64,000 bases of DNA from Candidatus Bathyarchaeota archaeon (GTDB lineage: Archaea; Thermoproteota; Bathyarchaeia; Bathyarchaeales; Bathycorpusculaceae): the NCBI GenBank assembly GCA_963733095.1, contig CAVTBV010000012.1:352001-416000 (forward strand), read 5' to 3'. Of this stretch, positions 738-18,673 are shown piece by piece (the stretch's first letter is position 1; the number at the start of each line of letters is the position of its first letter). The notes beneath the pieces were generated by a model. That model searched no databases. It saw only the letters and a program-made list of their open reading frames with translations, and was not told where the DNA came from. The translations under genes and the position numbers were made by a program.

Positions 738-855
738 ACGGTAAAAAATGAGTTTCACAGATTTTTAAAGCAAGATAACCCGGAATTTTCTGCTAACCTT
801 GCGTTTAGAAAACAAATAAAAAAAAGGAAAAGTTGGTTTTTTCCCTTACGTGGGT

Positions 856-3504
856 TTAAGGTCTTTTTCGTTGCATCAGTATTGAAACAGCGCCGACTAT
901 GATGATTACGACGATAATTGCGATTGCTGAGCCCAGAACGTATGAGTCAGTCATTGATGTAGAAGGAGGTGTAGGTGTAGTGGTTGCAGCTGGCGCGTTC
1001 ATTACATAGAAAGCGGTTTGTGAGGATGATCCCCAGTAACCATTGTTGCCGTTGAAAGAAGCGATAACTGTGTAATTCCCAGCGATGTCAGGTGTCCAGG
1101 CAAGACTGTATAGTCCGCTTGAAGTAGTTGTTGTTGTGCCTATGTTCCGGGAGTTTCCATTAGAGTCCACGACATCTATTGACACTGGAACGCCTGTGAA
1201 GTTGGTGGGCATTGGTTGCTGTTGATAGACATAGCTCATCCATTGGCTTGTGCTTGCGTCAGATGCAGCTGGAACGCCATTTGGGAAGTCAGCTGCTTGC
1301 TGGTTTTGTTTTGTTCCTGCCGAAATGTCAATCACTGTACCCTGTATGAACACGGTATTTCCTTGTGGGATAACGTTGTTTTGGACTGAAACAGTTGTGT
1401 CTGTCGGACCTCGTCCAACGCAGTATATTTGGTTGTCGTATTGATTATAGAATGTTGCATCTCCGTCAGCGATAGCTATGGGTTGCATTGAGGTGCCTAA
1501 TCCTGAGGCAGACCAAGATGAGAGTGTCCAGATTTCTTGTCCAGTGGTAGCGTTGAGCACGCGCATCTGGTTGCCGTAGTATAGTGGTGTGTTTGGTGAG
1601 TGTTCGCCTGCATAGGTGAATACCATTCCGTCGGCAAATGCTGTGAGGTGGATTGGATAAAGTCCCCATGGTGTGTCTGCGCCGCTGTTTGTGGTGTTTC
1701 CTTCTCCGCCGTTACCGTAAGTCCATAGAAGAGTGCCATTTAGCATCGAATAGGAATAGACTATACCGCCGTACCCTGCTACGTAGTAATTGCCGTAAGC
1801 TGGCAGTCCTTCTCTGGAACTGTAGTATTGGAATCCTGTTTGAGCAATTGTACTTGGACCCCAAACTAGGTCTCCGGTTGCAAGGCTGTAAGCAAGTCGC
1901 TGGCCAGTTTCTTGGTATGTCATGGCAAACTCGTTTGTAACTGGATCTATTGGTTGCGTTGGTAACATTTCGGTGAGGTTTCCTGGTGGTGCTGGGTAAT
2001 TCTTAATCCATAGTAGATTGCCTTCTGAGCCTGGTGCATCGCTTAGAGCCCACATTGTCCATGGGTTTGAGTTCGGGTTAGATTCTGCAATGAGCGCAAT
2101 GTTGCTGCTAGTGCCTAATATTGTCTGCCCAGGGATGATACCGACGATGTGTGGAGGTGCTAGGTTAAGTGTAGTAATTGCTGAGGGGTAACTTCCATCC
2201 AAGTTTGATGAGATTGTCACGTTGTATGAATATGCATAGCTTTTGCTTGCATCGATAGAGAACCCTGAACCAACTGGCACGAAGTCTATACCTGGAGCAG
2301 GCGCTCCGGGTGCACCATTGTCTGGAGCTGTGATTGCTGCAGTATCATTCCATAAAGCTAACCAGCCACTTTGAGCATTGACGTCATAGTTGAATACGTA
2401 TATCAATATGTCACCTGCGTTGTCATAAACTTGAGTGCCGCGAGGAACGTTCGTCAAATTAAATAGGAACTGCTGAGTGAATGCGTTATAAGCCATCCAT
2501 GTAGAGCCAGAAACCTGCCAAAGTATCGCTCCGGGGATTCCGTGCTGGTTGGGTATTTGTATGTCAGCGATTTGTGCCATGCTTGGATAGAGAGTTGTAC
2601 TTGACCACAATGTTTGGCCAGTCGTCAAATCTACCGCCATCTCTGGTCCACCTGATCCGGCCTCCCCATTGGGTTCTCGGTAGTAAAGTACACCTTGTAG
2701 AATTATTGGATTGTTAAACCTAACATTGTATGACATTCCCTGATAATAAGTAGCTAAGTCATCAGTTGCTTCAGCTGTATCGCCAGGTTGACTTACAGTT
2801 CCGCCTGCTAAGCCACCAAACTCGAGCGGTTTTGTCCATAGTATGTGTGCACTTGTGGGTGCCACACCGTTTGCTTGAATATAGTTAGATTCTGCAGCTC
2901 CGCCTAGCCAGTTTGATCCAACAGCATACATGCCTTGGTTTTGTCCGTATATTGGTCTAGTCCAGTATGCAGTGGGTAGTGCAGAGTTAACATTTGTCGG
3001 TATTGGCTGTTCCTGCACGGTAAAAGTCATGGATGCATTGCTGGGCAGATAGATGTCACCGTTAGTTGCGGGCAACCCTACCTGGAGTGCTACTGGACCT
3101 GGACCATTGTATACTTGTCCGCCGTAGCTGAAAGATACTGTATAGGTTCCAACTTGGTCAGGAGTGAAGGCAAAGTATTGTGATGATGTTGTATCACTAA
3201 CTGTTGGGAATGACTGCGTTACTTTCGTTCCGTCGGGTTGTGTTATAATAAAGGTGTAGTTTTCAGCTCTGATGTTATTTTCAAGAAGTGCTCCTGATAT
3301 TACTTGATTAATCCAGCCGAATATGAGCATTTGTTGACCAACACCAACTGGGTTGGGTGAAGCAGCGACAAACGCGTATGTGGTGATTTGCCAGGGTGGT
3401 GTATGTGCGGTGGCGTTGGGTAATAGTGTCATCGAAGCCGCCATTGATATTGTGAGAAGAATCGCAATAGTGATAGTTGCTGTTTTGTTTAAAGCAATTT
3501 TCAT
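856..3504 (-). CDS. Secreted PQQ-like beta-propeller surface protein with Ig-like ends and C-terminal TM anchor (paralog 1)
   Basis: Signal peptide ending AHTPPW, repeated TG-x-x-LW blades, C-terminal WTPDIAGNYTVIASF, Thr/Pro linker, TM helix and basic tail. GGAGA SD upstream. Confidence 0.85.
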   Translation of the reverse strand: MKIALNKTATITIAILLTISMAASMTLLPNATAHTPPWQITTYAFVAASPNPVGVGQQMLIFGWINQVISGALLENNIRAENYTFIITQPDGTKVTQSFPTVSDTTSSQYFAFTPDQVGTYTVSFSYGGQVYNGPGPVALQVGLPATNGDIYLPSNASMTFTVQEQPIPTNVNSALPTAYWTRPIYGQNQGMYAVGSNWLGGAAESNYIQANGVAPTSAHILWTKPLEFGGLAGGTVSQPGDTAEATDDLATYYQGMSYNVRFNNPIILQGVLYYREPNGEAGSGGPEMAVDLTTGQTLWSSTTLYPSMAQIADIQIPNQHGIPGAILWQVSGSTWMAYNAFTQQFLFNLTNVPRGTQVYDNAGDILIYVFNYDVNAQSGWLALWNDTAAITAPDNGAPGAPAPGIDFVPVGSGFSIDASKSYAYSYNVTISSNLDGSYPSAITTLNLAPPHIVGIIPGQTILGTSSNIALIAESNPNSNPWTMWALSDAPGSEGNLLWIKNYPAPPGNLTEMLPTQPIDPVTNEFAMTYQETGQRLAYSLATGDLVWGPSTIAQTGFQYYSSREGLPAYGNYYVAGYGGIVYSYSMLNGTLLWTYGNGGEGNTTNSGADTPWGLYPIHLTAFADGMVFTYAGEHSPNTPLYYGNQMRVLNATTGQEIWTLSSWSASGLGTSMQPIAIADGDATFYNQYDNQIYCVGRGPTDTTVSVQNNVIPQGNTVFIQGTVIDISAGTKQNQQAADFPNGVPAASDASTSQWMSYVYQQQPMPTNFTGVPVSIDVVDSNGNSRNIGTTTTTSSGLYSLAWTPDIAGNYTVIASFNGNNGYWGSSSQTAFYVMNAPAATTTPTPPSTSMTDSYVLGSAIAIIVVIIIVGAVSILMQRKRP

Positions 3505-3658
3505 AATTTTTTCTCCTTTTATTGATACTTGTGTTAAACTATAACGCTGTTATAGTGAATAATATAAACTTTACTTTGATTTTCTTTTTTCAGCACTATT
3601 AGAACTTAGAGCAGTAGTTTAGTGTGCGTTTGTGAGCGTTAGGCGTTGGTTTAAGTAT

Positions 3659-3674
3659 TTGTCACAAGTGGTAC
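3659..3674. promoter_or_regulatory. Candidate operator TTGTNACAA(GTGGTAC) next to a TATA-like box
   Basis: Palindrome TTGTCACAA. The same motif recurs at 6707 and 9629 upstream of paralogs 2 and 3. Confidence 0.55.
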
Positions 3675-3727
3675 CTCAGACAGATTTGCCAAAAATGAAA
3701 TTGGTTTTCAATTCAAGAAAGGTTAAA

Positions 3728-3832
3728 GGTTTGCTGAGGCTCTGGAACGAATTGGAGAAGAGCGAAATGCAAAACGCTCCTCACGAAACTATGGTCAAGT
3801 ATCGTGAATTTTAACCAGAGCCTACTCAGCCC
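3728..3832 (-). ncRNA. BHB-closed structured RNA, copy 1
   Basis: Minus strand GG-GCUG-AGU-AGGCUCUGG...CCAGAGCCU-CAGC-AAA-CC. Internal hairpins are UCACGA/UCGUGA and GAGCG-UUUUGCAUUU-CGCUC. Confidence 0.65.
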
Positions 3833-3855
3833 GCATTTTTTCCAGTACTTTAGAG

Positions 3856-3872
3856 ACTAAAAAAGGGGAAAG
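3856..3872 (-). terminator. Pyrimidine/oligo-U terminator of paralog 2
   Basis: Minus strand CTTTCCCCTTTTTTAGT, about 30 nt after the stop. Identical 17-mer at 6937-6953. Confidence 0.55.
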
Positions 3873-3902
3873 ATTGTTTTTGTTTGTTTTTTGTTCGATT
3901 AC

Positions 3903-6647
3903 TTATGGTCGCTTTCGCAGCATCATCATAATCAATGCGCCGATTATAACCAGCACAACGATAATCGCTGCAATACCGATCGCAAAGTCAGTAGTCGTAG
4001 CATAGTTGCCTGTCGATGATGCAGGAGCCGAAGTCGAAGCCACCACGTCACTAGCATAGAAATGAGTCTGAGCCGAAGAACCATAGTAGCCACCTGAACC
4101 AGCAAACGTCGCAATCAAAGTATAATCACCCGCAATATCAGGAGTCCAAGTAAAACCGTACGCACCCGAAGCATCAGTAGTAGTAGAACCAATAGATCGA
4201 TAGTTACCATTAGAGTCAACAACACTAAGAGTAACAGAAACACCGACCTCGTTGTGCGGATCCGGCTGCTGCATATACACCGTCTCCATAAACGCGCTCA
4301 TACTAGCATCAGAAACCACCGGCAACCCATTGGGATAGTTCGCTGCAACCGCTTCTTGCCTTGCACCCGCAGAAACATCCGTCACAGTACCCGTAATAGT
4401 AATCGGAGTAGCAGTAGAAACGCCTACCTGAGGAGCACTAACAGTAGTAGCACTCGGACCCTGCCCATAAGCGTAGATCTGGTTGTCATAAGCATTCAAA
4501 TTCGTCATAATACCATACGCAAGCTCCGGATTGCTGTTGACATTAAACGAATCAATCGCCCACACAAGATCACCAGTCGTACAGTTAATCGCCAATTGCT
4601 GAGAACCGATGAACAGAGGAGGCGAATACTCATGTCCCTCACCAAGGAACATCAATCCACCACCACCGCCGATGCCAGTCTGCACCCAAATAGGCCAAAC
4701 ACCATACGGTGTATTACCGCCAGCTTCACCAGTAATCTTTGTAGTGTTCGTGTACCAGTTAACAGAGCCATCCGCCATCGACAAAGACCAGATGTCGCCG
4801 CCAAAGCCAAAGATATAGAAGTTCCCACCGTAGATGTTGCCCTTAATGCCGCCCACAGTATCATAAGCATTTATATCCGCACCATTATCGCCCTTAAGAG
4901 TCGTTTGCCAAACTAGATTGCCTGTAGTGACACTGAAAGCAGAAACCTCACCAGTCTCTTTGATGATGGTTGTGAAAACTCCATCGGCAACGTTGCCATA
5001 GTTGTCTAAGTTAACTGCAGTGTAAGGCGTAAAAGCGATCTCCTTAACGAATAGCTGTTGTCCAGTGTTTATGTCAAAGCCAGTAAACCAGTCAGAGCCT
5101 GTTTGGAAGTAGTTTGTAAGCCCTGCGTTATTTAGCGAGTAAAGAATTGCGACACCGCTGTTAACGCCCATAATTGTCCAACTTGTCGGTTGACCCGTAG
5201 GTAGCTGATAAGCAGCCATTATTCCGTATTTGTAGTCGATAACGGCGTTTTGTGTAGGTCTCCAATTCCAGCCTGAACCCGATGTAGATGGCCAGCCCAC
5301 GCCAAGCATAATGGCCTGTGTCGAATTCCAAACCTCAAGCAAACCGTTGCCCGCAGTGTTGGTAACTTTTGTGGGTTCTGGTCCGATGACTGGTTGAATT
5401 TGTCCGTAGATCGTTTGTGTGCCGACAGTAGTGTTTGTGTAGTATTGAATAAGGTTGCCAGATGCATCCACAGTATTTCCATACGAAAAGCCCGTACCGT
5501 TAACAATGCTAAGAATATACTTACCAGTCATAGCATCAAACATGTTTAGGCTAGTTCCGCGCGAGTATATTCCGTCAAGGGTTCCTTGAGTCCATAGGTA
5601 TGCAACTCCGCCGTATTGGTTGGGTGACACATAATCAAGCACTTGGCCACATTCCAGAGGTGTAACTTGACCATTTGATGTGAGAGCAGTTTGCGCTGGT
5701 GAACCTCCACCATAGTTGGTTGAGTCGTCGACCCATATTGTTTGTCCAGTGTATAAGTCAACGCAGACGTTGGCAGTAGGGTTAGCTGAGCTGCCTGGGA
5801 TTTGAGTGTAGTAGAGGTAGCCGTTGATGACAATCGGATTATACTTCCGTTCGTACTGAGCAGTCGAATAATAGTTGCCGTAAGTCGTCGTTCCGCCTGC
5901 ATCACCGCCGATGACACCGCCAAAAGTAATGGGCCTTGTCCAAATGATGTGAGACGTAAGCGGCGCAGTAGAGTAGGGATTGAAGTTTGTGGTTGTGTTG
6001 TAGTTGGAGGCGCCTTTACCTGCGCTGTAGCCGATGTAGAGGCCAAGATAAGGACCGCCGATAGCGTACCAGTTGTAAACGTTCATCGCATTGATCGGAG
6101 TCTGCCAATAACTAGTTGGAAGCGGAGTACCCGGAATAGACGGCACAGGTTCTTGCTGAACAGTTAAAGTTGCAACATCGCTTATAGCTGGTAGAATAGT
6201 GTCGTTGATGTAGCTTGGGTTGCTAATGCCAGTCAAGCCGTATTGACCACCGTTTAATGTCTGTCCTGGATAAGTCATCTGGAATTGGTATTCACCCAAT
6301 TGGTCAGGTGTATAGTGTGTGCTTGTTCCACCAGTATCATCAGATGTGAATGGACCCAATGTCTCGTTTGTTCCATCAGGCTTAATGACATGAACCGTGA
6401 ATGGACCAAACCTGTCACCATAGATAGTGCCAGCAGTCATTGGCGGTGCATTTAGCCAAAAGCCAACAGTAACAGTCTGACCCAGCCCAGCAGGATTAGG
6501 TGCAACATTAACGAACGCAAACAGTTGAATGTCAAACGGTGGAGTATGTGCATTAGTGTTTGGCAGTAGAGCCATTGAAGCTCCCAAAGAAATTATCAAA
6601 AGTGCTGCAATCGAAATAGCTGTAGTTTTACTTTTTAGATTAAACAT
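3903..6647 (-). CDS. Secreted PQQ-like beta-propeller surface protein (paralog 2)
   Basis: Same architecture as paralog 1. Start moved to MFNLK (6647), which follows a GGAGA SD. Confidence 0.85.
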   Translation of the reverse strand: MFNLKSKTTAISIAALLIISLGASMALLPNTNAHTPPFDIQLFAFVNVAPNPAGLGQTVTVGFWLNAPPMTAGTIYGDRFGPFTVHVIKPDGTNETLGPFTSDDTGGTSTHYTPDQLGEYQFQMTYPGQTLNGGQYGLTGISNPSYINDTILPAISDVATLTVQQEPVPSIPGTPLPTSYWQTPINAMNVYNWYAIGGPYLGLYIGYSAGKGASNYNTTTNFNPYSTAPLTSHIIWTRPITFGGVIGGDAGGTTTYGNYYSTAQYERKYNPIVINGYLYYTQIPGSSANPTANVCVDLYTGQTIWVDDSTNYGGGSPAQTALTSNGQVTPLECGQVLDYVSPNQYGGVAYLWTQGTLDGIYSRGTSLNMFDAMTGKYILSIVNGTGFSYGNTVDASGNLIQYYTNTTVGTQTIYGQIQPVIGPEPTKVTNTAGNGLLEVWNSTQAIMLGVGWPSTSGSGWNWRPTQNAVIDYKYGIMAAYQLPTGQPTSWTIMGVNSGVAILYSLNNAGLTNYFQTGSDWFTGFDINTGQQLFVKEIAFTPYTAVNLDNYGNVADGVFTTIIKETGEVSAFSVTTGNLVWQTTLKGDNGADINAYDTVGGIKGNIYGGNFYIFGFGGDIWSLSMADGSVNWYTNTTKITGEAGGNTPYGVWPIWVQTGIGGGGGLMFLGEGHEYSPPLFIGSQQLAINCTTGDLVWAIDSFNVNSNPELAYGIMTNLNAYDNQIYAYGQGPSATTVSAPQVGVSTATPITITGTVTDVSAGARQEAVAANYPNGLPVVSDASMSAFMETVYMQQPDPHNEVGVSVTLSVVDSNGNYRSIGSTTTDASGAYGFTWTPDIAGDYTLIATFAGSGGYYGSSAQTHFYASDVVASTSAPASSTGNYATTTDFAIGIAAIIVVLVIIGALIMMMLRKRP

Positions 6648-6706
6648 TTTTTTCTTTTCTCCTTTATTCTGTAACTTACTCCATGGGTTCAAACTCTGTT
6701 AAGCGT

Positions 6707-6722
6707 TTGTAACAAGTGGTCC
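6707..6722. promoter_or_regulatory. Candidate operator TTGTAACAAGTGGTCC
   Basis: Conserved palindrome immediately upstream (minus sense) of a TTAA TATA-like box of paralog 2. Confidence 0.55.
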
Positions 6723-6789
6723 TTCTGAAAAATTTCTTGATAGATTTTACTCCAAAAATTAAAGCGAGAAAAGTTTGATAACAAAAGTA

Positions 6790-6909
6790 GGCGGCACGTT
6801 TGCTGAGGCTCTTGGTGGGTGATTAAGGAGAGAAAAAGAGAATGCAAACTCTTTCTTCACGACTATAGCTATTTCGTGAATTTAATCCGAGCGTTCTCAG
6901 CCCTCCGCC
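6790..6909 (-). ncRNA. BHB-closed structured RNA, copy 2
   Basis: Minus strand GGCGG-AGG-GCUG-AGA-ACGCUC...GAGCCU-CAGC-AAA-CGU-G-CCGCC. Stems are GAUUAA/UUAAUC, UUCACGA/UCGUGAA and AAAGAG-UUUGCAUU-CUCUUU. Confidence 0.65.
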
Positions 6910-6936
6910 AGATCTACAACTTTTTTGCCTATGCAA

Positions 6937-6953
6937 ACTAAAAAAGGGGAAAG
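6937..6953 (-). terminator. Pyrimidine/oligo-U terminator of paralog 3
   Basis: Identical to 3856-3872, about 25 nt after the stop. Confidence 0.55.
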
Positions 6954-6977
6954 TGGATTTTGAGTCATATCTTTACA

Positions 6978-9567
6978 CTATGGTTTTTTCCTAAGCAGTA
7001 GTACGCCAACGATGGCTATTGCAATGATTATAGCGGTTACTCCGGCAGCCATGTACATCATAAGATCATTAGTTGTCGCTAAACCCAACATCGTGTCTGC
7101 GGACGCAGCTGTTGATGATGATGCTACTGGATCAACTGCGAAAGCGGCTTCTGAATAAGACGAATAGTAAGACTCAGAGCCTGGGAATGTTGCGATAACT
7201 GTGTATTTGCCTTCAATATCGGGAGTCCACTGGAAGCTAAATGTGCCGGTGGCATCACTCGTGGCTGTACCGATGTTGCGATAGTTGCCGTTTGAATCAA
7301 TTACATCGATTGAAACTGGAACCCCAGTTGTGTTGCTGGGACGTGGCTGCTGCATGTAAACGTACTCCATAAAGGCTTGTTGGCTTGCTTCAGAAACACA
7401 TGGAAGACCGTTTGGGAAGCGCGCAGCTGATACTTCTTGTGATGCACCTGCAGAGATATCCATAACTGTGCCAGCGATAACTATCGAACTGCCTAAATTA
7501 ATTGCCGCTTGAGGCGCAGTGACTTTTGTAACGGTTGGTCCTTTGCCCCATGCGTATAGCTGGTTGTCGTAAGCATTCAGCGTTGTCATGATGCCGTCTG
7601 AGATGGCTGGTGCGCTTGTAACGTCAAAAGCAGTTATGCTCCAAACAACAGAGCCGTCGGTGAGATTTAGCGCCATCTGTTGTGCGTGGTGGAATAAGGG
7701 TGGGCTATACATGTGGCCTACAGGAACAAACAGCTTGCCGTCTGCAACTGTTCCTACACTGAAAGTCCAAAACGGCCACGTACCATAAGGAGACTCATAA
7801 CCACTTGATGGCGCGTGATATTCCCAGTTAAAAGTCCCAGTTGCCATGTCGATAGAATAAGCATCTCCTCCATAAGTCCATGTTAGCAATGTGCCGTTAG
7901 GACCTGGACAGTAACGTTGGCCAAGTGAAGTGAAAGGATTAACGTTCGGCATTGGTTTTGGTCCCCAGATCTTGTCTCCCGTGGTAAGGCTGTAGCCTGT
8001 TGCTGTTAATGCGGCAGAATCAAATTCGACCCAAACGCCGTACCCCATAGTTTCAGCGCCGAAAAGAACCCTGGAATTTTCAACTTCTGTATGGTTCTTT
8101 GGGCCCCAAAGTAGGTGTCCGTCGACTGCACTGTAGCCTGCTACAACATACCATCCGCCTTGGAAGTAGGCAGATTGACCACTTGCATACGATAGAAGTA
8201 CTACGCCGCCGTTGATTCCGTTAAGGCTCAAAGATATAGGATTGCCGTCGATCTGTGTTGCGATTGGTGCGGACCATTCTATTCCATTTTGGAATGCGAT
8301 CACACCGTCTTGGGGAGGCCTCCATTGCCACCCGTTCGGGTCACCGTTACCGTTTACGCCTCGCATGATTGCCCTAGGTAGAGTTCCACACAGTGAGCGA
8401 TCGCTGACCCCCACTTGAATTAACATAGTAGCCTATCAAACCGCCGTAGTCATCAAGTTGAATCGAGTTCAAGCCAGTACCGTTGACAATGCTAAGGATA
8501 TATTTACCCGTCATAGCGTCATACATGCTGTAGGTTGTTCCAGTAGAAACAACTCCAGTTACCGAGCCTGTAGCCCACAGGTATGCTCGTGCGCCGTATT
8601 CGTTAGGTGTTAAATAATCCATTATTTGACCGCATTTTAGAATCGTCGTGTAGTCTTGTGTCCATATTGTCTCTCCAGTGTGCAAGTTAACTGCTGCCCA
8701 GCCTGCTGGATTAGCAGTAGAACCAGGATACATAGTGTAGTAGAGCATACCGTTCATGATTATTGGTGCGAACTTTGGCTGATATTGCGATGTTGACCAG
8801 AAGTTGCTTTGTTGATCACTGCCGAATTCTCCTCCGACTGTGCCGCCGAAAGCTATAGGCTTTGTCCACATGATGTGGGGACTGTTAGGCGCAGTTGTAT
8901 AGGGTGCATAGCTTCCTTGTGCATTGTACTGTCCTGTGTTTGCAAATGTCGACACTCCAAGACCAAGCCAGTTGCCGCCTATGGCGTACCATAAATCGTT
9001 GTTCTGGGCGTAGATTGGGCGAGTCCAGTATTCGGATGGAAGCGGAATTACAGGTGCATAGCTTATTGGTTCTTGCTGAACGGGCAGGGTAAATAAGTTG
9101 CTCTTGCTAGGTTCATAATAGTCGCCTACGAACGGGTTAGTCGATGGTAGTCCATTAGCTGTATTTAACCCTAATAATGTGTTGCCGCCAAAGACCATCT
9201 GGAAAGTGTAATTGCCAACTGATGTAGGTGTGTAGGTGGTGTGTGATCCTCCCGTGTCATCGGATGAGAATGGACCTAGTGTTTCAGTGGTTCCGTCTGG
9301 ATGTGTCACTACAACAGTCATGTCTGTCCATCTGTCACCAGAGGCCATAGCTGCTGTTGGTGGCGGTACTTGAAGCCAGAAATTGACGTTAACCTGTTGA
9401 CCAACACCTATAGGAGAAGGCGCAATATTTATGAAACAGTAGGTTGGAAGTGACCATGATGGATCATGTGCACTAGCGCTTGGCAGTAATGTTATTGAAG
9501 CTCCCATTGAAACTGTCAGGATTGCTGCAATCAAAATAGCCACAGTTTTATTTTTTATTTTCAGCAT
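6978..9567 (-). pseudogene. PQQ-like beta-propeller surface protein (paralog 3), split by a 1-nt frameshift at about 8376
   Basis: ORF 8374..9567 ends WNST* and ORF 6978..8426 continues RAIMRG. Paralog 2 reads WNSTQAIMLG. Removing one base from ACC-T-AGG restores the frame. Confidence 0.8.
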
Positions 9568-9628
9568 TTTTTATTTTTCCTTTTTCTTCTGTAATTATAG
9601 TATTGGTCTTTAGTTTGTTTAAAAAACG

Positions 9629-9644
9629 TTGTAACAAGTTGTAC
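9629..9644. promoter_or_regulatory. Candidate operator TTGTAACAAGTTGTAC
   Basis: Third copy of the palindrome, adjacent to the TTTAAA box of paralog 3. Confidence 0.55.
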
Positions 9645-9715
9645 TTATGACAAACTTTCAATAAAATATTTTTTCATTAAATAAATAATTATGATAAAAA
9701 TAAATCATAAATAAT

Positions 9716-9824
9716 GCTTGTTGTTTGCTGGGGTTCCAGAATTGTGGAAGGAAAGAAAAATGCAAAAACGGGCTAAATCAATCAATTTATAGGAGAATCC
9801 CTTCTGGAACCCTTTCAGCCAAGC
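9716..9824 (-). ncRNA. BHB-closed structured RNA, copy 3
   Basis: Perfect BHB on the minus strand: UUG-GCUG-AAA-GGGUUCCAGAA...UUCUGGAACCC-CAGC-AAA-CAA. Contains UUUUUGCAUUUU. TATA-like TATATTAA at 9849-9842. Confidence 0.65.
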
Positions 9825-9949
9825 CCAAACTTCATTCCCCAATTAATATACCTCTCAAACTATTTTTAAAAATGTGTAATCAGTACGCCTTCAGACAAAA
9901 AATGCCTTGGTTTCAGGAAAAATTCTTAAATCATCTCGATAAAAGTTAA

Positions 9950-10741
9950 ATGAGAAAAATGACACAAACCGAAGAAGAATCGATTGAAATATTCACAAGT
10001 TTAGGACTTACATATGTGCAAGCAAAACTGTATTTAGCCATTGTCAGACTTGGGAGCATCGGCGGCGACGTTAAAAAAATTTCTCGCGAATCAAGTGTGG
10101 TTCGACAAGACATCTACAGAGTTTTACCCAGTCTACAAAAACTCGGATTAACCGAAAAAATAATCTCTAAACCAACAAGCTACAGGGCAATTCCCCTAGA
10201 AAAAGGATTTTCCACACTCCTAAACAAAAAAACCAGTGAATATTCTGATCTCAAGAAAAAGGCAAAGACAGTTTTTGACAAAGTTGCTTTATGCGCCACT
10301 AAAGGTGATGCTGATGAAGACCCGCAGTTTGTAATAACTTCAGAGAGAGAACTTTTCCTAAGAAAAGTCAAAGAAGACATTGAAGAAACAAAGTCCTGCA
10401 TCCGGGTGATATACTCAAAAGAAAGAATGAGCATAATTGCGTTTCACACAGGAGATCAACTTGAAAAAGCCATGGCAAGGGGTATTAAAATTCAGGCTCT
10501 CACAGACAAATCACAAGAGAATACACTGGACAGAAACATCCAAATGCTCAAGAAAAACCCAGCCTTTGAGCTCAGATTTGTCGAAGAGGTTACTGTCGGT
10601 TTAATAATTTTCGATTATAAAGAAGTTAACCTTCGTATGGCAAAAACCATAGTTCCGAGTCTATGGACAAATAACCGAAACGTTGCGAAACTAGCGGATA
10701 TGTATTTTGAGAATCTCTGGAAAAAAGCCCCAACAGAATAA
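9950..10741 (+). CDS. TrmB-family transcriptional regulator
   Basis: N-terminal LGLT..QAKLY wHTH with RQDIYRVL..LQKLGL..P..YRA. C-terminal effector domain ending LWTNN..YFENLW. Confidence 0.85.
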   Translation: MRKMTQTEEESIEIFTSLGLTYVQAKLYLAIVRLGSIGGDVKKISRESSVVRQDIYRVLPSLQKLGLTEKIISKPTSYRAIPLEKGFSTLLNKKTSEYSDLKKKAKTVFDKVALCATKGDADEDPQFVITSERELFLRKVKEDIEETKSCIRVIYSKERMSIIAFHTGDQLEKAMARGIKIQALTDKSQENTLDRNIQMLKKNPAFELRFVEEVTVGLIIFDYKEVNLRMAKTIVPSLWTNNRNVAKLADMYFENLWKKAPTE

Positions 10742-10883
10742 AACGCAAAAAAAATACTCCTCAATATTCCATGTGTTTAGTAAAGAAGTGCCTCTTTCGT
10801 GTTTTTTTGGTTTATGGGCGATTTTACGGAAACTTTATTATGTATTCGAACGGTTTTTAGAACACCTCAATGAGGAACCTTGG

Positions 10884-12164
10884 ATGACAGAAACCTCTGA
10901 AGCCTATGGAACAAGAGAAAATTGGCCACCTTACACTTACAGGGATTACCCCGGCATAAAACCAGAAGCCTACGAAGCCTTCATGAAATTCCTGAACACA
11001 GAGAACACTTCAGGCAGACTGATGGAACTGCAACCATGGGTTTCCGTTTGCGATTCGAAATGCGCATTCTGTTATTTCCCAACCACAGCATCAAGCAAAG
11101 TGCAGATTGAACCCTACCTTGACCTCCTCAAAAAAGAACTTGCCATGTACGCCAAAACCAAATATGTTAAAACCAGCGTGTTTGACGAAATTGTTTTGGG
11201 CGGCGGAACTCCCAGCGTGCTTAGCGCTGAACAAATTATTGATTTAATCGATTTCTGCAAAGCTAACTTTAACACTAGTAAAGAATACTTTATCAAAGTC
11301 ACTGGTTCCTCAAAGACGCTGGCGATTCCAAAAATCGACAAGTTGGCAGAGTACGGTGTCTACCAGATGGACATGGGCGCACAAACCTTCGACGACAAAC
11401 TACGCAAAGCGTTGTGCTTGCCCGATAGCGCCATTGATGTCGAGAGAGCAATAAAGCATGCTAGAAAACTTGGGTTAGTGGTCTGCGTTGACTTAATGTA
11501 TAATTTGCCCGGGCAAACAATGGAAAGCTGGGTTGACACGCTCAAGAAAACCATCGAGTTGGATGCAGAAGTTGACGCTTACTCGTTACATGTAGATCCA
11601 GGAACTATTTTAGAGAAAATGATTAAAAACGGCACCTCCCCACCACAAGGCGACGCCGAGAACGAGAAACAAATGTTCATAACCGCACACAAAATGCTCA
11701 CCGATGCAGGCTATAAAGCAGTGGGTCATGACCGCTATAGCCGCGTTGAATGGCATATGCGTGAAAACTGCCTTAACGGCTGGCCATGGGGAGGCATCTT
11801 AACCACTGGTGCAGGCTGCTTTATGGGTTACCTGCAGAAATTCTCATATTCCAACATCGAAAACATCAACGAGTACATGGATACAGTGAAGTTGGGTAAA
11901 CTGCCCATCTGCAGACTATCCGAATCAACAACTGAAGACATGATGCGCAGAACTATGACAAGACTCTACCTCCGACTGCCAGTCAGCAAAAAAGAGTTCA
12001 TGGAGAAATTCAACACCACTCCCGAGCAAGTGTTTCCAAAGCAACTGCAGAAACTTAAAGAGCAAGGGTTAATCGAGATTGATGACAAAGAAATTCGCCT
12101 AACAAAGAAGGGCGAACTTTGGAAAGGCAACATTGCTTGGGAATTCGCACCCAACCATGCTTAA
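10884..12164 (+). CDS. HemN/HemW-like radical SAM protein
   Basis: CDSKCAFC, GGGTPS, DLMYNLPGQT and a C-terminal IRLTKKG HemN_C-like domain. Start inferred at ATG 10884. Confidence 0.8.
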   Translation: MTETSEAYGTRENWPPYTYRDYPGIKPEAYEAFMKFLNTENTSGRLMELQPWVSVCDSKCAFCYFPTTASSKVQIEPYLDLLKKELAMYAKTKYVKTSVFDEIVLGGGTPSVLSAEQIIDLIDFCKANFNTSKEYFIKVTGSSKTLAIPKIDKLAEYGVYQMDMGAQTFDDKLRKALCLPDSAIDVERAIKHARKLGLVVCVDLMYNLPGQTMESWVDTLKKTIELDAEVDAYSLHVDPGTILEKMIKNGTSPPQGDAENEKQMFITAHKMLTDAGYKAVGHDRYSRVEWHMRENCLNGWPWGGILTTGAGCFMGYLQKFSYSNIENINEYMDTVKLGKLPICRLSESTTEDMMRRTMTRLYLRLPVSKKEFMEKFNTTPEQVFPKQLQKLKEQGLIEIDDKEIRLTKKGELWKGNIAWEFAPNHA

Positions 12165-12284
12165 TTTTTTCCATTAAGCTTTCAGTTGATTTTTTTTATC
12201 TGTCGAGAATGAGCCTGTTTTTAATTTTAGTCTAATTAATTAAAAGAAAAATAAAGGAAGGGAAAGGTTGTTTCCCTATTGGTT

Positions 12285-14903
12285 TTAGGCGTGTTTTTTA
12301 ACCGTTGACCAGACAACTATGGCTGCGAGGACGATGATTGCAACGATCATGACAACAGAGAGCGGTAGGAAGTATAGGTCTGCGTTCGATTGTGGTACTG
12401 CTGTGGTTGGCGCGGGAGTAATGTCTGGTGCTGCCATTACGTTGAATGCAGTTTCGGATGATGATTGCCAATAAGAGTTCGAGCCTGCGAATGTAGCGAT
12501 TACTGTGTAGGTTCCTGGGACGTCTGGAGTGTATGCTTTTGCGAACATTCCGTTTGCGTCGGTTGTGGTGGTTCCGATGACGAAAGAGTTACCGTTCGGG
12601 TCGATGGTTGTTAAGGTCACTGTTACGCCTGTTACGTTTGTTGGGCATGGTCCTTGTTGGTAGACGTATTGCATCCATCCAGTCTGACTTGCGTCTGAGA
12701 CTGCTGGAACGCCATTTGGAAAGTCTGCTGCTTGTTGTTTTTGTGTTGTGCCGGCTGAAATGTCCATTACTGAGCCCTGTATGAGTACGTTGTTTCCTTG
12801 TGGAATGACGTTGGTTTGGATGTTGACGTTGGTGTTGCTTGGTCCTTTGCCTACGACGTATACTTGTCCGTCATATGCGTTAGCGAATGCCATGTAGCCG
12901 TCAGCGATAGCGATGGGTGCCATGGATGTGCCAAGTCCTGAAGCTGACCAATCTGGAAGTGCCCAGAGTTCTTGTCCAGTGAAGGAGTCTATAGCGCGTG
13001 CCATGTATCCTCTGTATAATGGTGTGTTGGGGGAGTGCTCTCCTGACATTGTGTATACTATGCCGTCTGCAAATCCTGCAATGTGAGTTGGGTAATTGCC
13101 CCATGCAGTGTTGTCGCCGGTAGCTGTGCTGTTTGCACCTACACCGTTGCCGTAAGTCCACAGTAGGGTGCCGTTTGACATTGAGTAGCAGTAGACAACT
13201 CCGCCGTAGCCGCTAACGTAGAGGTTTCCGTATGCGGGCAAACCTTCGCGTGAGCTGTAGTATTGGAATCCGTTTTGAGCGCGGTCACTTGGACCCCAAA
13301 CTAGTTTTCCATCGGCGAGGCTGTAGGCGAGTCGTTGACCAGTTTCAAAGTATGTCATTGTCCATTCGCGTGTTACTGGATCGATTGGTTGTAAGGCTAA
13401 CATTTCGGTCTGGTTGTTTTCGGGTGCTGCGTATCTTTGAATCCATGAAAGTTGTCCTTGACTGCCGTCTTTGGCACTTAAAGCCCACATTGTCCATGGG
13501 TTGCTGTTTGGTCTAGGTGCTGAAGTTAAGCTAACACTACTGCTGCTGCCAAGTATTATATCGCCTGGGATGACGCCGACGATGCTTGGGTTTGCGGTGC
13601 CTGTTAAATCGTCTGTGATGGTGACGTTCCATGAGTAGGAAGCAGGTGTGCTTTCGTTAACGAATACACCTAAGTTGGAATTGATAGCAAATCCAGTGTT
13701 AGTTGGCCATGCGTATTGACCTGCAGCGACTGATCCAGAGTGTCCAGGATTGCTTGTTATAACTAGAGTTGAATTCCAAAGAGCTAACCAGCCTTGTTTT
13801 AGGTTAGTGTTGTAGCTGAATACGTATCGGTCGATTTCACCGTTGTTCAGGTAAACTTCAGTGCCTGAAGGAACGTTTGTAAGGTTGAATAGGAAAGTTC
13901 CGTCAAATGCGTTATAGCCCATCCATGTTGAGCCAGAAGTCTGCCATAGTATGCCTCCGACCATTCCGTGCTGGTTTGGTGACTGGAAATCAATCAGTTG
14001 TGCTTTTGAGGGGTTAAGTGTGCTGCTTGTCCAAAGTGTTTGTCCAGTTGTTAGGTCCACTGCATTAAGGACTCCGCCAGATCCAGCTTCGCTCAAAGGT
14101 GATTGGTAGTAGAGGATTCCGCTTAAGATCATTGGATTGTTGAATCGTGTGTTGTATGAGAAACCGGAGTAGAAAGTTGCCGCTGTATCGTTCACTTGAG
14201 CTGTGTTGCCAGCCTGAGTTACGACGCCACCGGTTAAACCGCCTAGTTCGAGGGGTTTGGTCCACAATACGTGTGCACTTCTTGGTGCTGCACCGTTTTG
14301 TTGCCAATAGTTAGCTGTAGCTGCTCCGCCAAGCCAGTTTGACCCGATAGAATCCCACAGAATGTTCATGCCGTTTATTGGTCGTGTCCAGAATGCGCTT
14401 GGAAGTGGATTTTCAGTGAATGTTGGCACTGGGTCTTGTTGCACTGTAAAGGTTGTTGTGAAATTGCTTGGTGTGTAGTAGTCACCTTGGTAGGCTCCGC
14501 CGAAGTCATATACTTGTCCTGGAAAGCTGAAAAACAGTGTGTATGTTCCAACTTGGTCGGGTGTGAAGGCATAATATTGTGATGATGTTGGGTCGCTAAC
14601 AACTGGAAAACTTTGGGTTACAACTGTTCCATCTGGTTTTGTGATAGTGAACTGGTAGTCGTGGAATCGAATGTTGTTGGTAAGATCTACACCGTTTATG
14701 GTGTTGTCAAGCCAACCGAAGATAAGCATCTGTTGACCTACACCAATTGGGTTAGGCGTAGCTGCAGCATATGCGTAGGTAGTGATTATCCATGCAGGCG
14801 TATGGGCACTAGCGTTTGGTATAAGTATCGTTGAAGCTCCTATAGAAATTGTTAAGAATACTGCAATCAAAATGGCCAAAGCTTTTGTTTTAAGATTTTG
14901 CAT
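12285..14903 (-). CDS. Secreted PQQ-like beta-propeller surface protein (paralog 4)
   Basis: Closest to paralog 1 (shared FQYYSSREGLPAYGN, GEHSPNTPLY, QQAADFPNGVPA). Signal peptide and TM anchor present. Confidence 0.85.
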   Translation of the reverse strand: MQNLKTKALAILIAVFLTISIGASTILIPNASAHTPAWIITTYAYAAATPNPIGVGQQMLIFGWLDNTINGVDLTNNIRFHDYQFTITKPDGTVVTQSFPVVSDPTSSQYYAFTPDQVGTYTLFFSFPGQVYDFGGAYQGDYYTPSNFTTTFTVQQDPVPTFTENPLPSAFWTRPINGMNILWDSIGSNWLGGAATANYWQQNGAAPRSAHVLWTKPLELGGLTGGVVTQAGNTAQVNDTAATFYSGFSYNTRFNNPMILSGILYYQSPLSEAGSGGVLNAVDLTTGQTLWTSSTLNPSKAQLIDFQSPNQHGMVGGILWQTSGSTWMGYNAFDGTFLFNLTNVPSGTEVYLNNGEIDRYVFSYNTNLKQGWLALWNSTLVITSNPGHSGSVAAGQYAWPTNTGFAINSNLGVFVNESTPASYSWNVTITDDLTGTANPSIVGVIPGDIILGSSSSVSLTSAPRPNSNPWTMWALSAKDGSQGQLSWIQRYAAPENNQTEMLALQPIDPVTREWTMTYFETGQRLAYSLADGKLVWGPSDRAQNGFQYYSSREGLPAYGNLYVSGYGGVVYCYSMSNGTLLWTYGNGVGANSTATGDNTAWGNYPTHIAGFADGIVYTMSGEHSPNTPLYRGYMARAIDSFTGQELWALPDWSASGLGTSMAPIAIADGYMAFANAYDGQVYVVGKGPSNTNVNIQTNVIPQGNNVLIQGSVMDISAGTTQKQQAADFPNGVPAVSDASQTGWMQYVYQQGPCPTNVTGVTVTLTTIDPNGNSFVIGTTTTDANGMFAKAYTPDVPGTYTVIATFAGSNSYWQSSSETAFNVMAAPDITPAPTTAVPQSNADLYFLPLSVVMIVAIIVLAAIVVWSTVKKHA

Positions 14904-15115
14904 TTAGTTCTCTCTCCTTAATTCGGTAGCAAGGCAAACAAGCAATAACCTTATAAGACTTATGGAAAACTTGTCTCTGATTACAAGTTAGAAGTTTAAA
15001 ATTAGAATTTTTGCATCGGTTTATTCCCAACTGGAATTTAAATGGGAACATAGGCACCCGGCTAATTTCTTCAACAAAATAATGCCCGACGCTAAAAAGA
15101 CAGCATAATTGAAAA

Positions 15116-15184
15116 AGTTCTCTATGACCTATGGATTAATTCTGAAATGCAAAGCAGACATAGTACAATTAAAGAACTGCAGCA
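15116..15184 (-). ncRNA. Degenerate copy 4 of the upstream structured element
   Basis: TCTG-AAATGCAAAG-CAGA hairpin nested in CTATG/CATAG and AGTTCT/AGAACT, ending CAGC. BHB partner strand absent. Confidence 0.35.
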
Positions 15185-15237
15185 TTTTTTTGCAAAAATT
15201 AAGGTTTATAAATAAAAAAAGAAAAGAGATTGGGAAT

Positions 15238-15891
15238 TTAATGGTGCTTCATCGGTTGAATGCCATACCACGTCATTACTTTGCCTAGTATTGGCACTAT
15301 CACACCTAAGGCAATGCCGGGCACAAAGTTAGTTACGACTGCCAACACTGGGTCCTGCGCCCAAGAGTCTTGAGCCATCTGTCTTGCGGGTGCAAGCGAG
15401 ATAGTGTAGTTCATGTAAGCTTTGAGTACTGCAACTATCACTGAAGCAGTGAATCCTGCACCAATCATTCGTTTGAAGTTGGTTGAGCCGTTGTTGAGTG
15501 CGCCAGCCATGTAGCCGATTATAACACCGTAGACAATCCAGTAGAGCATGCTGATGTCGCCAAAGAAGTTGTAAGAAGTTACACCTGCACTTGCATAAAT
15601 TCCGTTATATTGACCTGCTTGAGCTACATAATAGAGGCCGCCCATTATGAAGCCCGCTGCTCCGCCTGCCCACTTATTCCATAAAAGGCCCAAAACCAGC
15701 GGGATACCGAGAATAATCATTTCAGCAAAGCCGTTAACGAGTATGACAGCAATAGTGTTCGTTGCACCTATAACATGGTATGTTCCGCCAACGTTGACGT
15801 AGACTGCGAGGACATAGATGAGTAAAAACAGGATTAATGGTATAATTATGCCTGCGAAGATGTCTGCTAGTTTAAATTTGTTTTCTTCCAT
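15238..15891 (-). CDS. Integral membrane protein (ECF S-component-like, about 5-6 TM)
   Basis: Hydrophobic helices with a LGLLWNKWAGGAAGFIMG motif. Confidence 0.6.
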   Translation of the reverse strand: MEENKFKLADIFAGIIIPLILFLLIYVLAVYVNVGGTYHVIGATNTIAVILVNGFAEMIILGIPLVLGLLWNKWAGGAAGFIMGGLYYVAQAGQYNGIYASAGVTSYNFFGDISMLYWIVYGVIIGYMAGALNNGSTNFKRMIGAGFTASVIVAVLKAYMNYTISLAPARQMAQDSWAQDPVLAVVTNFVPGIALGVIVPILGKVMTWYGIQPMKHH

Positions 15892-16054
15892 TTTTTATCC
15901 CTTTTAAATTATTTACGGTGCGAGTTGTTAATAAATTTAATGCTTACAAGCTTGCCATACAAACTAAAATTCTACAAATAAATAACAATAAATTACTTAC
16001 CCTAACAAAGGGACAAAGAAAAAATAAAGAGAGAGGAGGTTTTTAGGCGCGTTT

Positions 16055-18462: not shown

Positions 18463-18673
18463 TTTTTTTACCTTCTCAAATAAAGAGGTATCTCTAAGCG
18501 CTGTCTTATTAAACTTTTTCAGTAACATGCAGTAGAAGTCAAAGAGGGATAGTCTAAACTTTAGAACACAAGATTTTCATCCCAATGTTGATTGTTAAAA
18601 TGGTAAAAAGCTGCTAGAGTTAAGCAAAGCTAATACACCTAAAAAAGCAAGTACCAATGGTCGAGGCAAAAAA

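Follow-up and report, generated by a model that had tools for sequence, protein, structure and literature searches.

Genomic locus and distribution of the element

The window analysed here is a stretch of 64,000 nucleotides from the genome of a Candidatus Bathyarchaeota archaeon. Its minus strand carries four paralogs of a very large surface-glycoprotein family of Bathyarchaeia: paralog 1 (856..3504), paralog 2 (3903..6692), paralog 3 (6978..9567), which is split into two overlapping ORFs, and paralog 4 (12285..14903), which encodes 872 aa with a signal peptide, a PQQ-like beta-propeller, an Ig-like domain and a C-terminal membrane anchor. Three copies of a conserved, structured element of about 110 nt are found on the same strand. 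Copy 1 (3719..3849; covariance model R1, 103.7 bits, E = 2.5e-22) folds into a closing stem and two inner hairpins, with a 5' flank and a single-stranded CUCC stretch, and begins 54 nt past the stop codon of paralog 2. Copy 2 (6788..6920; R1, 87.3 bits, E = 1.3e-18) begins 58 nt past the stop of the split paralog 3. Copy 3 (9713..9838; 60.4 bits, E = 1.6e-12) is a more degenerate orphan without a family gene upstream; the start of paralog 3 lies 146 nt downstream of it. Paralogs 1 and 4 have no element behind them.

The stop codons of paralogs 2 and 3 are separated from copies 1 and 2 by a conserved T-run, CTTTCCCCTTTTTTAGTC at 3855..3872 and the same motif at 6936..6953 (both minus strand). 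This T6-containing motif is present in the linkers of all 21 element-bearing family genes of the genome, and similar T-runs are located behind the element-free paralogs 1 and 4. Archaeal transcripts end at sequences of this kind.

The three copies, previously described as "BHB RNAs", are members of a repeat family that occurs 29 times in this genome. Of these, 21 copies lie on the gene strand behind a family gene and begin 38–58 nt past its stop codon (one at 184 nt), and the other eight are orphans. A family gene is next downstream in only 8 of the 29 cases. In 21 of 29 cases the element thus belongs to the 3' flank of the paralog upstream of it, and is not a unit placed in front of a paralog as had been proposed. 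They accompany only 21 of the 56 family ORFs or fragments of this genome. Within the genus (g1), copies occur in 28 of 36 congener genomes searched. In named relatives the gene strand carries all 29 hits, and a hit stands directly behind the gene at 23 of 78 gene loci. Genus g16 has copies in both genomes searched, directly behind the gene at 28 of 30 gene loci. A search of 22 genomes belonging to other genera in the order found no copies.

A degenerate copy had also been reported ahead of paralog 4. The best that the covariance model scores there with filters off is 12.8 bits (15097-15198, E = 0.11). Since the elements follow a family gene that lies upstream, and paralog 4 has a gene from outside the family upstream of it, no copy is expected at that place.

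Conserved fold of the element

In the alignment fitted to the model, 87.9% of cells are paired in the consensus structure and 19 of 25 pairs show double changes, values reached by none of 500 shuffles. The element core has a median identity of 73%, compared with 64% in the final 120 nt of the coding sequence next to it and a baseline of 60% for unrelated sequences; the proteins are only 32–55% identical. The most invariant parts are the closing-stem strands GGGCUGAG…CCUCAGCAAACCC with their two conserved 3-nt bulges (UAG/AAG and AAA), rather than the putative guide.

In its long terminal stem, where each strand has one conserved 3-nt bulge, the element resembles the BHB substrates of the archaeal splicing endonuclease. 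According to PMC7714728, the BHB motif has a 4-bp helix between its bulges, and TACK-type enzymes accept looser motifs. In the element this helix has 6 bp and each bulge is 3' of it on the gene strand, which is the wrong side. The closing stem is therefore not a canonical BHB.

The gene strand of the copies in the window contains stretches complementary to a translation start. In copy 1 these are UUUUGCAUUU (3765..3774), which is the complement of AAAUGCAAAA and an unpaired 10-nt hairpin loop of the minimum-energy fold, and the single-stranded UUCUCCAAUU (3750..3759), complementary to the SD-like AAUUGGAGAA. The anti-start-site stretch of copy 2 (6822..6848) is the complement of ATTAAGGAGAGA…AATGCAAA, and that of copy 3 (9747..9768) of GGAAGGAAAGAAAAATGCAAAA. 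In the minimum-energy fold of copy 2, UUUGCAUU is again in a hairpin loop, and the CUCC stretch is unpaired. The predicted g1 fold exposes the anti-AUG in a 10-12-nt loop and leaves the anti-SD unpaired. The anti-SD is predicted to be unpaired in g16 too, whereas the anti-AUG is not exposed there and pairs with an internal sense-like stretch.

Similarity to the start regions of the family

The translation-initiation region of paralog 4 (14896..14925, minus strand) is AAGGAGAGAGAACTAAATGCAAAA; read from 14925 to 14896 it gives CGAATTAAGGAGAGAGAACTAAATGCAAAA, and copy 2 matches it with exact runs of 12 nt and 8 nt. The strings quoted in the preliminary description at paralog 4, copy 1 (3748-3774), copy 2 and copy 3 read as given, the minus-strand sequence is, as described, the reverse complement of an SD followed by AUG-CAA, and the loop exposure in copies 1 and 2 was reproduced. 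Its observations thus stand in part, and its interpretation is supported in part. The choice of paralog 4 as the target is not: the opposite strand of the element mimics the stereotyped start region of the family, TTAAAGGAGAAAA…AAATGCAAAA, and paralog 4 is not singled out. The other initiation regions in the window, all on the minus strand, are AAAAGGAGAAAAAATTATGAAA for paralog 1 (3502..3525), the antisense of which is a weak partial R1 hit, ATAAAGGAGAAAAGAAAAAAATG for paralog 2 (6645..6672, SD-proximal ATG at 6647), and GAAAAAGGAAAAATAAAAAATG for paralog 3 (9565..9592). With filters off, the antisense strands of all four start regions are among the top ten hits of the covariance model; that of paralog 4 is the fourth best R1 hit in window positions 1-16000 (E = 0.0012).

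We searched for the pattern AAGGAGA-N6-14-AATGCAAA, using shuffles as the control in the window and the reversed pattern in the genome. The window has two matches, copy 2 on the plus strand and the paralog 4 start on the minus strand; shuffles yield 0.01 on average and none of 100 reaches two, so the match is not due to chance. The whole 2.8-Mb genome (G000) has 13 matches, which comprise five family gene starts, the opposite strands of seven elements and one element-like hairpin, and the reversed pattern has none. In genome G052, searched with the pattern of its own lineage, eight of nine hits are family starts or elements. The start ATGCAAA is found in 16 of 56 family ORFs, compared with 19 of 2393 other ORFs.

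A PWM built from 22 elements ranks family genes at positions 1-14 of 2449 ORFs, and they fill 17 of the first 20 places and 26 of the first 40; paralog 4 is at rank 5. The median score is 9.8 for family genes with GGAG and -16.0 for other GGAG genes (p = 5e-12). The mirror likeness is therefore specific to the paralog family. Complementarity no better than that to arbitrary GGAG genes, named beforehand as grounds for abandoning the idea, is accordingly not what the sequence level reveals.

Predicted energies give a less uniform picture. RNAduplex places paralog 4 at ranks 6, 2 and 6 of 2449 ORFs for copies 1, 2 and 3, and the comparison of family genes with other GGAG genes gives p = 0.87, 3e-3 and 6e-6, respectively. 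In the structure-aware cofold the corresponding values are 0.81, 1.0 and 1.3e-6, so that family genes are favoured for copy 3 only; the cofold of copy 1 with paralog 4 (-4.1 kcal/mol) is at rank 73 of 256. By these models binding is weakly specific, and the family has no consistent advantage in predicted energy over unrelated GGAG genes.

An element matches the start region of its own gene no better than those of siblings (p = 0.33 and 0.85), a result that speaks against simple within-gene conversion as the source of the likeness. Between element-bearing and element-free genes there is no significant difference in the start regions (p = 0.17). The eight best matches to the elements are all start regions of element-free genes (post hoc cut-off; hypergeometric p ~0.006, calculated by hand).

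The co-variation of guides and paralog start regions that the preliminary description proposed to look for is seen across the two genera. In g1, elements and start regions share GGAGAAAA…AAATGCAAAA, while in g16 both read GAAGGTGAAAAAATGAAAAA, and therefore the two co-vary between lineages. The start regions of the own lineage are the better match for 21 of 22 g1 elements and 20 of 23 g16 elements. The two lineages amount to essentially one evolutionary contrast.

Comparison with known regulatory systems

Bacterial intergenic repeats of the REP/BIME and ERIC types are imperfect palindromes that recur many times just behind genes; these genes are unrelated, and the repeats are not known to mirror a start region. 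The elements differ in that they go with one gene family and have a fixed linker.

A close likeness is with the icaR mRNA of Staphylococcus aureus, where a pyrimidine-rich anti-SD motif on the gene strand past the stop codon, within the 3' UTR, pairs with the SD of the same mRNA, and action in cis and in trans is discussed (PMC3868564). That system, as presented there, is a single bacterial gene whose 3' UTR has been mapped and holds the motif UCCCCUG 260 nt past the stop; the duplex is cut by RNase III. The element, a candidate RNA, is a structured repeat behind dozens of archaeal paralogs, lies beyond a T-run, covers the AUG and the second codon as well, and has no own-gene preference. Trans-acting sRNAs that mask ribosome-binding sites, such as sRNA162 of Methanosarcina mazei, carry the SD/start complementarity in a loop or unpaired stretch (PMC3510493), and the S. 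aureus sRNAs RNAIII and RsaE act similarly through UCCCC motifs (PMC3868564). All three are single-copy sRNA genes with mapped transcripts, whereas the element comes in 29 sibling copies that are each linked to a gene of the family presumed to be the target, and their "seed" mirrors the consensus start of that family.

For the hbs mRNA of Bacillus subtilis, which has a strong SD, contact between a sequence at the 3' end and the 5' end has been proposed (PMC5737220). This is a single gene in which stability is coupled to translation, not a repeated family module. The variant surface proteins of Giardia offer a conceptual likeness, in that small RNAs from or against a surface multigene family restrict the members made (PMC3937270). 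That system uses eukaryotic Argonaute machinery and coding-sequence targets, and no such machinery is implied for the elements.

Possible functions of the element

We tentatively favour, at somewhat below an even chance, a family-level "anti-start-site" riboregulator as the most likely function. An unlikely though serious alternative is a structural 3'-end device. It might serve as a terminator (back-up or bidirectional), protect against exonucleases, or be a site of processing or protein binding. It would not pair with start regions, and its start likeness would be the remnant of an inverted duplication of a family gene's 5' end, occasionally refreshed by gene conversion. The constant place just past the stop codon and T-run agrees with such a device, as do the greater invariance of the bulged closing stem, the inner pyrimidine-rich tracts, which are T-runs too, and the inconsistent binding preference. 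One old duplication followed by independent drift would not, however, yield an SD type and second codon matched to the lineage; conversion between the two ends of a gene predicts the own-gene likeness that is not seen; and richness in U does not by itself account for correctly spaced GCAU and CUCC/CACCUUC. A rather improbable reading assigns the function to an RNA from the opposite strand: a structured mimic of the start region (SD and AUG in a hairpin) that would act as bait for ribosomes or a repressor specific to the family, the start of a tiny ORF, or the head of an antisense transcript into the paralog 3' end. That strand does have a near-consensus family start region, and in about 8 of 21 copies its closing stem is followed by a T5-6 run. 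Of the 19 decided cases in g16, 15 have the more stable inner hairpin on the opposite strand and 4 on the gene strand, and in that genus the opposite strand lacks internal T-runs while the gene strand of the element holds two T6 runs. In g1, on the other hand, the inner hairpin is more stable on the gene strand in 47 of 55 decided cases and on the opposite strand in 8. A comparison of the flanks with tRNA promoters found no conserved promoter-like sequence on the distal side, and the short ORFs of the opposite strand vary in length and sequence between copies, with their codons inside the co-varying stem. Other indications of the transcribed strand are mixed: the closing stem has G-U versus A-C counts of 29:21 and 15:23, and when whole elements are folded the gene strand comes out ahead in only 56 of 86 cases, by a mean of 1.2 kcal/mol.

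We consider a role at the DNA level very unlikely; here the start region and its inverted copy would be recombination sites that invert or exchange paralog cassettes, or the element would be a MITE- or REP-like mobile repeat. An inverted pair does flank each element-bearing gene, the bulged closing stem forms an imperfect inverted repeat, and eight copies are orphans. The inverted pair is short (about 25-30 bp) and only about 75% alike, however, the place relative to one gene family is fixed and the linker conserved, the inner hairpins co-vary as RNA structure does, and no recombinase or transposase is present among the ten window ORFs scanned against Pfam (856-18528). Least probable of all is the original version, in which BHB-processed stable RNAs ahead of each paralog act on paralog 4 and on further siblings starting MQ- in a system of mutual exclusion. 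It is in accord with the high RNAduplex ranks of paralog 4 for all three copies and with the element-free origin of the eight best-matching starts, but the elements belong to the 3' flank of the upstream gene, the BHB is not canonical, and start regions with and without an element are alike overall.

For the anti-start-site riboregulator, we infer the following scheme. The gene strand of the module carries the reverse complement of the family's translation-initiation region. Its RNA would be made by read-through of the T-rich terminator of the paralog or from its own promoter; the T6 run between stop codon and element, or the internal T6 runs in g16, could end transcription early. The RNA would pair with the SD/AUG of family mRNAs, those of siblings in trans or its own in cis, and this pairing would limit their translation or stability. 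The sequence relationships suggest that the element may be a family-wide RNA brake on translation.

The surface-protein family and its 3′-flanking element

The products of paralogs 1–4 have about 870–930 amino acids and contain a signal peptide, a PQQ-like beta-propeller, an Ig-like domain and a C-terminal membrane anchor; their relatives are found almost only in Bathyarchaeota/Bathyarchaeia MAG records. The source genome (2.8 Mb, 16 contigs) has 56 family ORFs or fragments, mostly 32–55% identical to the queries in BLASTP, and three congeners have 20–37 family matches. The family probably accounts for much of the cell surface. Paralog 3 consists of two overlapping ORFs (window 6978–8426 and 8374–9567, minus strand; 482 and 397 amino acids) and probably represents a family member that is frameshifted or in decay; further split members occur elsewhere in the genome. 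The palindrome ACTTGT[T/G]ACAA, which is not part of the element, lies 58–155 nt upstream of four family genes (window 3655–3665, 6707–6717 and 9629–9639, minus strand, and C10:71261 in the genome). It has only 10 matches genome-wide, occurs at no family genes but these four, and may serve one sub-family as a regulator site. In the interval that separates paralog 3 from paralog 4, genes for a TrmB-family regulator and a HemN-like radical SAM protein run opposite to the paralogs (9950–12164, plus strand), and RnfC- and RnfD-like genes are found at 16055–18528 (minus strand).

The element is a dispersed repeat with 30 genomic copies at E < 1e-3 in nhmmer and 29 with its covariance model, R1. In 21 of the 29 copies the R1 match begins 38–58 nt past a family stop codon and on the strand of that ORF (one of the 21 at 184 nt); the other eight are orphans, including window copy 3 (9713–9838, minus strand). 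A family gene is the next downstream gene in only 8 of the 29. It follows that the element goes with the upstream paralog, as part of its 3′ flank; a resemblance to a 5′ element arises only from the tandem arrangement of some paralogs. It is present at only 21 of the 56 family ORFs or fragments. With R1 filters off, the supposed degenerate copy that the preliminary description placed before paralog 4 reaches 12.8 bits (E = 0.11), and it was not counted. No match to Rfam 15 was obtained in the 64-kb window at the gathering threshold, and no tRNA or tmRNA was found there.

The linker begins after the stop codon with about 25 A/C-rich nucleotides, followed by the conserved T6 run CTTTCCCCTTTTTTAGTC, about 25 nt (often AATGCATTGGAGAAAAAATG) and then GGGCTGAG. 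Because similar T-runs end paralogs 1 and 4, which lack the element, the T-run is probably the terminator of the paralog, with the element beyond it. An A/C-rich stretch followed by the terminator-like motif CTTTCC(C)CTTTTTT ends family genes with or without the element and is family-wide (window 812–833 and 12245–12262, minus strand, plus the linkers of 21 genes genome-wide).

Copies were found by R1 in 28 of the 36 genomes searched from the source genus (g1) and in both genomes of a second genus, g16, which belongs to a different family of the same order; the 22 genomes searched from other genera gave none. Among 78 named paralog-holding loci of relatives, all 29 element matches are on the gene strand, that is, the strand of the adjoining paralog, and 23 stand directly behind the gene. 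In g16 the element directly follows the gene in 28 of 30 gene loci.

Fold of the element

The closing stem is composed of GG/CC, GCUGAG/CUCAGC and GCUCUGG/CCAGAGC, with 3-nt bulges. It encloses a variable hairpin, a hairpin whose co-varying stem surrounds the conserved loop UUUUGCAUUU, and unpaired UUUUCUCCUUUAA. In an alignment of 57 sequences, which was fitted to R1 and leans towards the structure of the model, 87.9% of cells are paired and double changes occur in 19 of 25 pairs; these values are not reached in any of 500 shuffles, and pairing in slid controls is 31–51%. The element cores are a median 73% alike, versus 64% for the final 120 nt of the neighbouring genes and an unrelated baseline of 60% with the same aligner.

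In the minimum-energy folds of the minus strand of copies 1 and 2, UUUUGCAUUU and UUUGCAUU are placed in hairpin loops and the CUCC stretch is unpaired. The folds predicted for g1 generally have the anti-AUG in a 10–12-nt loop and the anti-SD unpaired. Those predicted for g16 also leave the anti-SD unpaired, with the U-rich anti-AUG paired to internal AAAAAUGAAAAA, so that the g16 anti-AUG would be masked rather than looped out. Three g16 elements (L182, L185 and L188) carry both the sense-like AAAAAUGAAAAA and its complement, in a predicted A-U stem of 14–15 bp.

The closing stem had been described as a BHB, which PMC7714728 defines as a helix of 4 bp with a 3-nt bulge on either side. Two conserved 3-nt bulges are indeed present on opposite strands (UAG or AAG on the 5′ strand and AAA on the 3′ strand), but the helix between them, GCUGAG/CUCAGC, has 6 bp, and each bulge is situated 3′ of this helix when the gene strand is read. 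The predicted motif is thus not a canonical BHB. Looser motifs are tolerated by the TACK-type enzyme according to the same source, so a putative element RNA may still be processed.

In many copies a sense-oriented GGAGAAAAAA(TG) stands 8–10 nt before the closing stem (for example at window 3838–3850, minus strand), and g16 elements have GGAAGAAATG at the same place in the 5′ flank. The sense-oriented stretch could pair with the inner UUUUCUCC, which is better conserved. A pseudoknot of the 5′ flank GGAGAAAA with inner UUUUCUCC was rejected, since the flank is less conserved than the inner motif, which is kept even where the flank has no GGAG. The consensus features of k-turns, box C/D RNAs and integron attC sites are absent from the element, and the cassettes are not diverse. 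A hairpin GGGG-AAAATGCAAAA-CCCC preceded by GAAGGAGAAGA (C14:81846–81869 in the source genome) is like the inner hairpin of the element and was missed by the covariance model.

The element mirrors the start region of the family

The opposite strand of the element mirrors the family start region, and this mirror is family-specific. The start region of paralog 4 reads CGAATTAAGGAGAGAGAACTAAATGCAAAA (14925 to 14896, minus strand), and the plus strands of copies 1, 2 and 3 read CGAATTGGAGAAGAGCGAAATGCAAAA (3748–3774), ATTAAGGAGAGAAAAAGAGAATGCAAA (6822–6848) and GGAAGGAAAGAAAAATGCAAAA (9747–9768), respectively; the strings quoted in the preliminary description are all present at these positions. 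The pattern AAGGAGA-N6-14-AATGCAAA has two matches in the window, in copy 2 and at the start of paralog 4, where shuffles expect 0.01. Genome-wide, in a check made without start calling, it has 13 matches and the reversed pattern none; the 13 comprise five family starts, seven opposite strands of elements and one element-like hairpin.

The family start region is stereotyped, roughly ATTAAAGGAGAAAAAGAAAAAATGCAAAATTTAAAA, and an ATGCAAA start is found in 16 of 56 family ORFs versus 19 of 2393 other ORFs. A weight matrix (PWM) was derived from 22 elements, read on the opposite strand, and scored without the start triplet. Family genes take ranks 1–14 among 2449 ORFs, 17 of the top 20 places and 26 of the first 40; when only GGAG-bearing genes are compared, the family median is 9.8 versus −16.0 for the others (p = 5e-12). 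Presence of the element is not significantly associated with the start-region score (p = 0.17). When R1 was run on 16 kb with filters off, the antisense of all four window start regions was among the top ten matches, paralog 4 being the best of these (E = 0.0012). The match reported for paralog 4 thus holds up, although what is matched is the consensus of the family and not this gene in particular.

Co-variation between lineages

The consensus of the opposite strand of g1 elements is GGAGAAAA..AAATGCAAAA and that of g1 family start regions is GGAGAAAAAAAAAAATGcAAAA; the corresponding g16 consensus sequences are GgtgAAAAAATGAAAAA and GgtgAAAAAATGAAAAAA. Individual g16 start regions contain TGAAGGTGAAAAAATGAAAAA or TGAAGGAATGAAAAAATGAAA, and so do the opposite strands of g16 elements. 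Start regions of their own lineage are matched better by 21 of 22 g1 and 20 of 23 g16 elements, so the proposed guides do co-vary with the family start regions between these two genera, in what is one deep contrast only. In the g16 genome G052, the g16 pattern has nine matches and the control none: two family starts, six opposite strands of elements and one unclassified match.

Three further congeners keep the anti-SD stretch and vary in the loops, some of which match, by eye, the start of another paralog of the same genome. In the congener G015, again by eye, the complement of ATGAGAGCAA is present in elements L217 and L227, and the coding sequence of paralog L233 opens with ATGAGAGCAA as its first 10 nt. 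These sequences contain hints that variant loops track variant sibling starts. The element is no closer to the start of its own gene than to those of siblings (permutation p = 0.33 in G052, n = 14, and 0.85 in G060, n = 13), and no own-gene pattern between element and start region is seen in the source genome either.

Pairing energies and strand

In RNAduplex, paralog 4 ranks 6, 2 and 6 of 2449 for copies 1, 2 and 3, and the comparison of family genes with other GGAG genes gives p = 0.87, 3e-3 and 6e-6. Cofolding, in which family genes were compared with 200 sampled GGAG genes, gives ΔΔG values with paralog 4 of −4.1, −14.8 and −10.9 kcal/mol (ranks 73, 4 and 22 of 256), with p = 0.81, 1.0 and 1.3e-6 for the family. 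The predicted pairing energies are much less specific than the sequence similarity. Complementarity no better than to arbitrary GGAG genes, named in the preliminary description as grounds against a guide function, is thus contradicted at the sequence level by the PWM, while the energies are mixed across copies.

The strand indicators conflict. G-U versus A-C counts in the closing stem are 29:21 and 15:23, and the gene strand is favoured in 56 of 86 whole-element folds; for the inner hairpin, g1 favours the gene strand (47 vs 8) and g16 the opposite strand (4 vs 15). The g16 element has two T6 runs on its gene strand. Regions upstream of tRNAs show a BRE/TATA-like pattern, roughly AAAGG-TTTAWAT, to which neither flank of the element gave a convincing match. 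We also considered and rejected a conserved small ORF read from the opposite strand, as the ORFs vary in length and content among copies.

Interpretation and alternative explanations

We tentatively propose, with somewhat less than even confidence, that the element is a family-level anti-start-site RNA, the reading that covers most of these observations. It would be shaped by selection for complementarity to the family start region and transcribed either from a promoter of its own or through read-through of the terminator. A conserved fold at a fixed place behind the gene might also be expected of a structural 3′-end device whose similarity to the start region is inherited. A mirror that is family-specific, linked to the fold and changed in step with the lineage is not predicted by drift after a single old duplication, and the absence of own-gene similarity speaks against conversion within a gene; we regard such a device as unlikely. 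The preference of the g16 inner hairpin for the opposite strand would suit a sense mimic made from that strand, which the gene-strand preference in g1 does not; this explanation seems quite unlikely.

A further alternative is that the elements are DNA-level recombination sites or a mobile repeat. A mobile intergenic repeat of the MITE or REP type is disfavoured, as scatter among unrelated genes is not observed and 21 of the 29 copies stand at a fixed distance behind one gene family, with a conserved linker. We hold this whole class of explanations to be very improbable. We hold equally improbable the model originally put forward, of BHB-processed RNAs aimed at paralog 4 and acting in mutual exclusion: the opposed bulges and the paralog 4 match are there, but the helix is not that of a canonical BHB and the match is to the family as a whole. 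The anti-start-site RNA could also be part of an RNA-guided cross-repression network within this one Bathyarchaeia family of about 50 surface glycoproteins, in which expressed paralogs bearing the module would co-produce an RNA that silences translation of their siblings, with only a subset displayed. We consider this extension unlikely; if true, these archaea would have their own equivalent of antigenic or phase variation, one that needs neither DNA rearrangement nor Argonaute.

Relation to known systems and significance

The nearest known case is the anti-SD motif in the icaR 3′ UTR (PMC3868564). The element shares with it an anti-SD placed past the stop codon on the gene strand (21/29 copies in the source genome; 29/29 on the gene strand in relatives; 28/30 in g16) and does not share the tuning to the 5′ end of its own gene (p = 0.33 and 0.85). 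Next nearest are sRNAs that mask ribosome-binding sites (PMC3510493). Unlike both, the element is a structured repeat on dozens of paralogs, covers the SD, AUG and second codon, and is archaeal and located behind a T-run. In the literature searched we found no account of an element of this kind, whether from Bathyarchaeia or from other archaea.

Bathyarchaeia are abundant, uncultured archaea of sediment and peat. To our knowledge, essentially nothing is known of their gene regulation. The mirror relation and its lineage co-variation are real and need explanation even if the RNA reading is wrong. If it is true, the element would be a recurring module dedicated to one family and mirroring the ribosome-binding site and start codon of that family, the first candidate post-transcriptional control system in Bathyarchaeia, and a rare prokaryotic case of a multigene family equipped with a family-specific antisense regulator of its own. 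It would also offer a clean system in which to test communication between the 3′ and 5′ ends of archaeal mRNAs.
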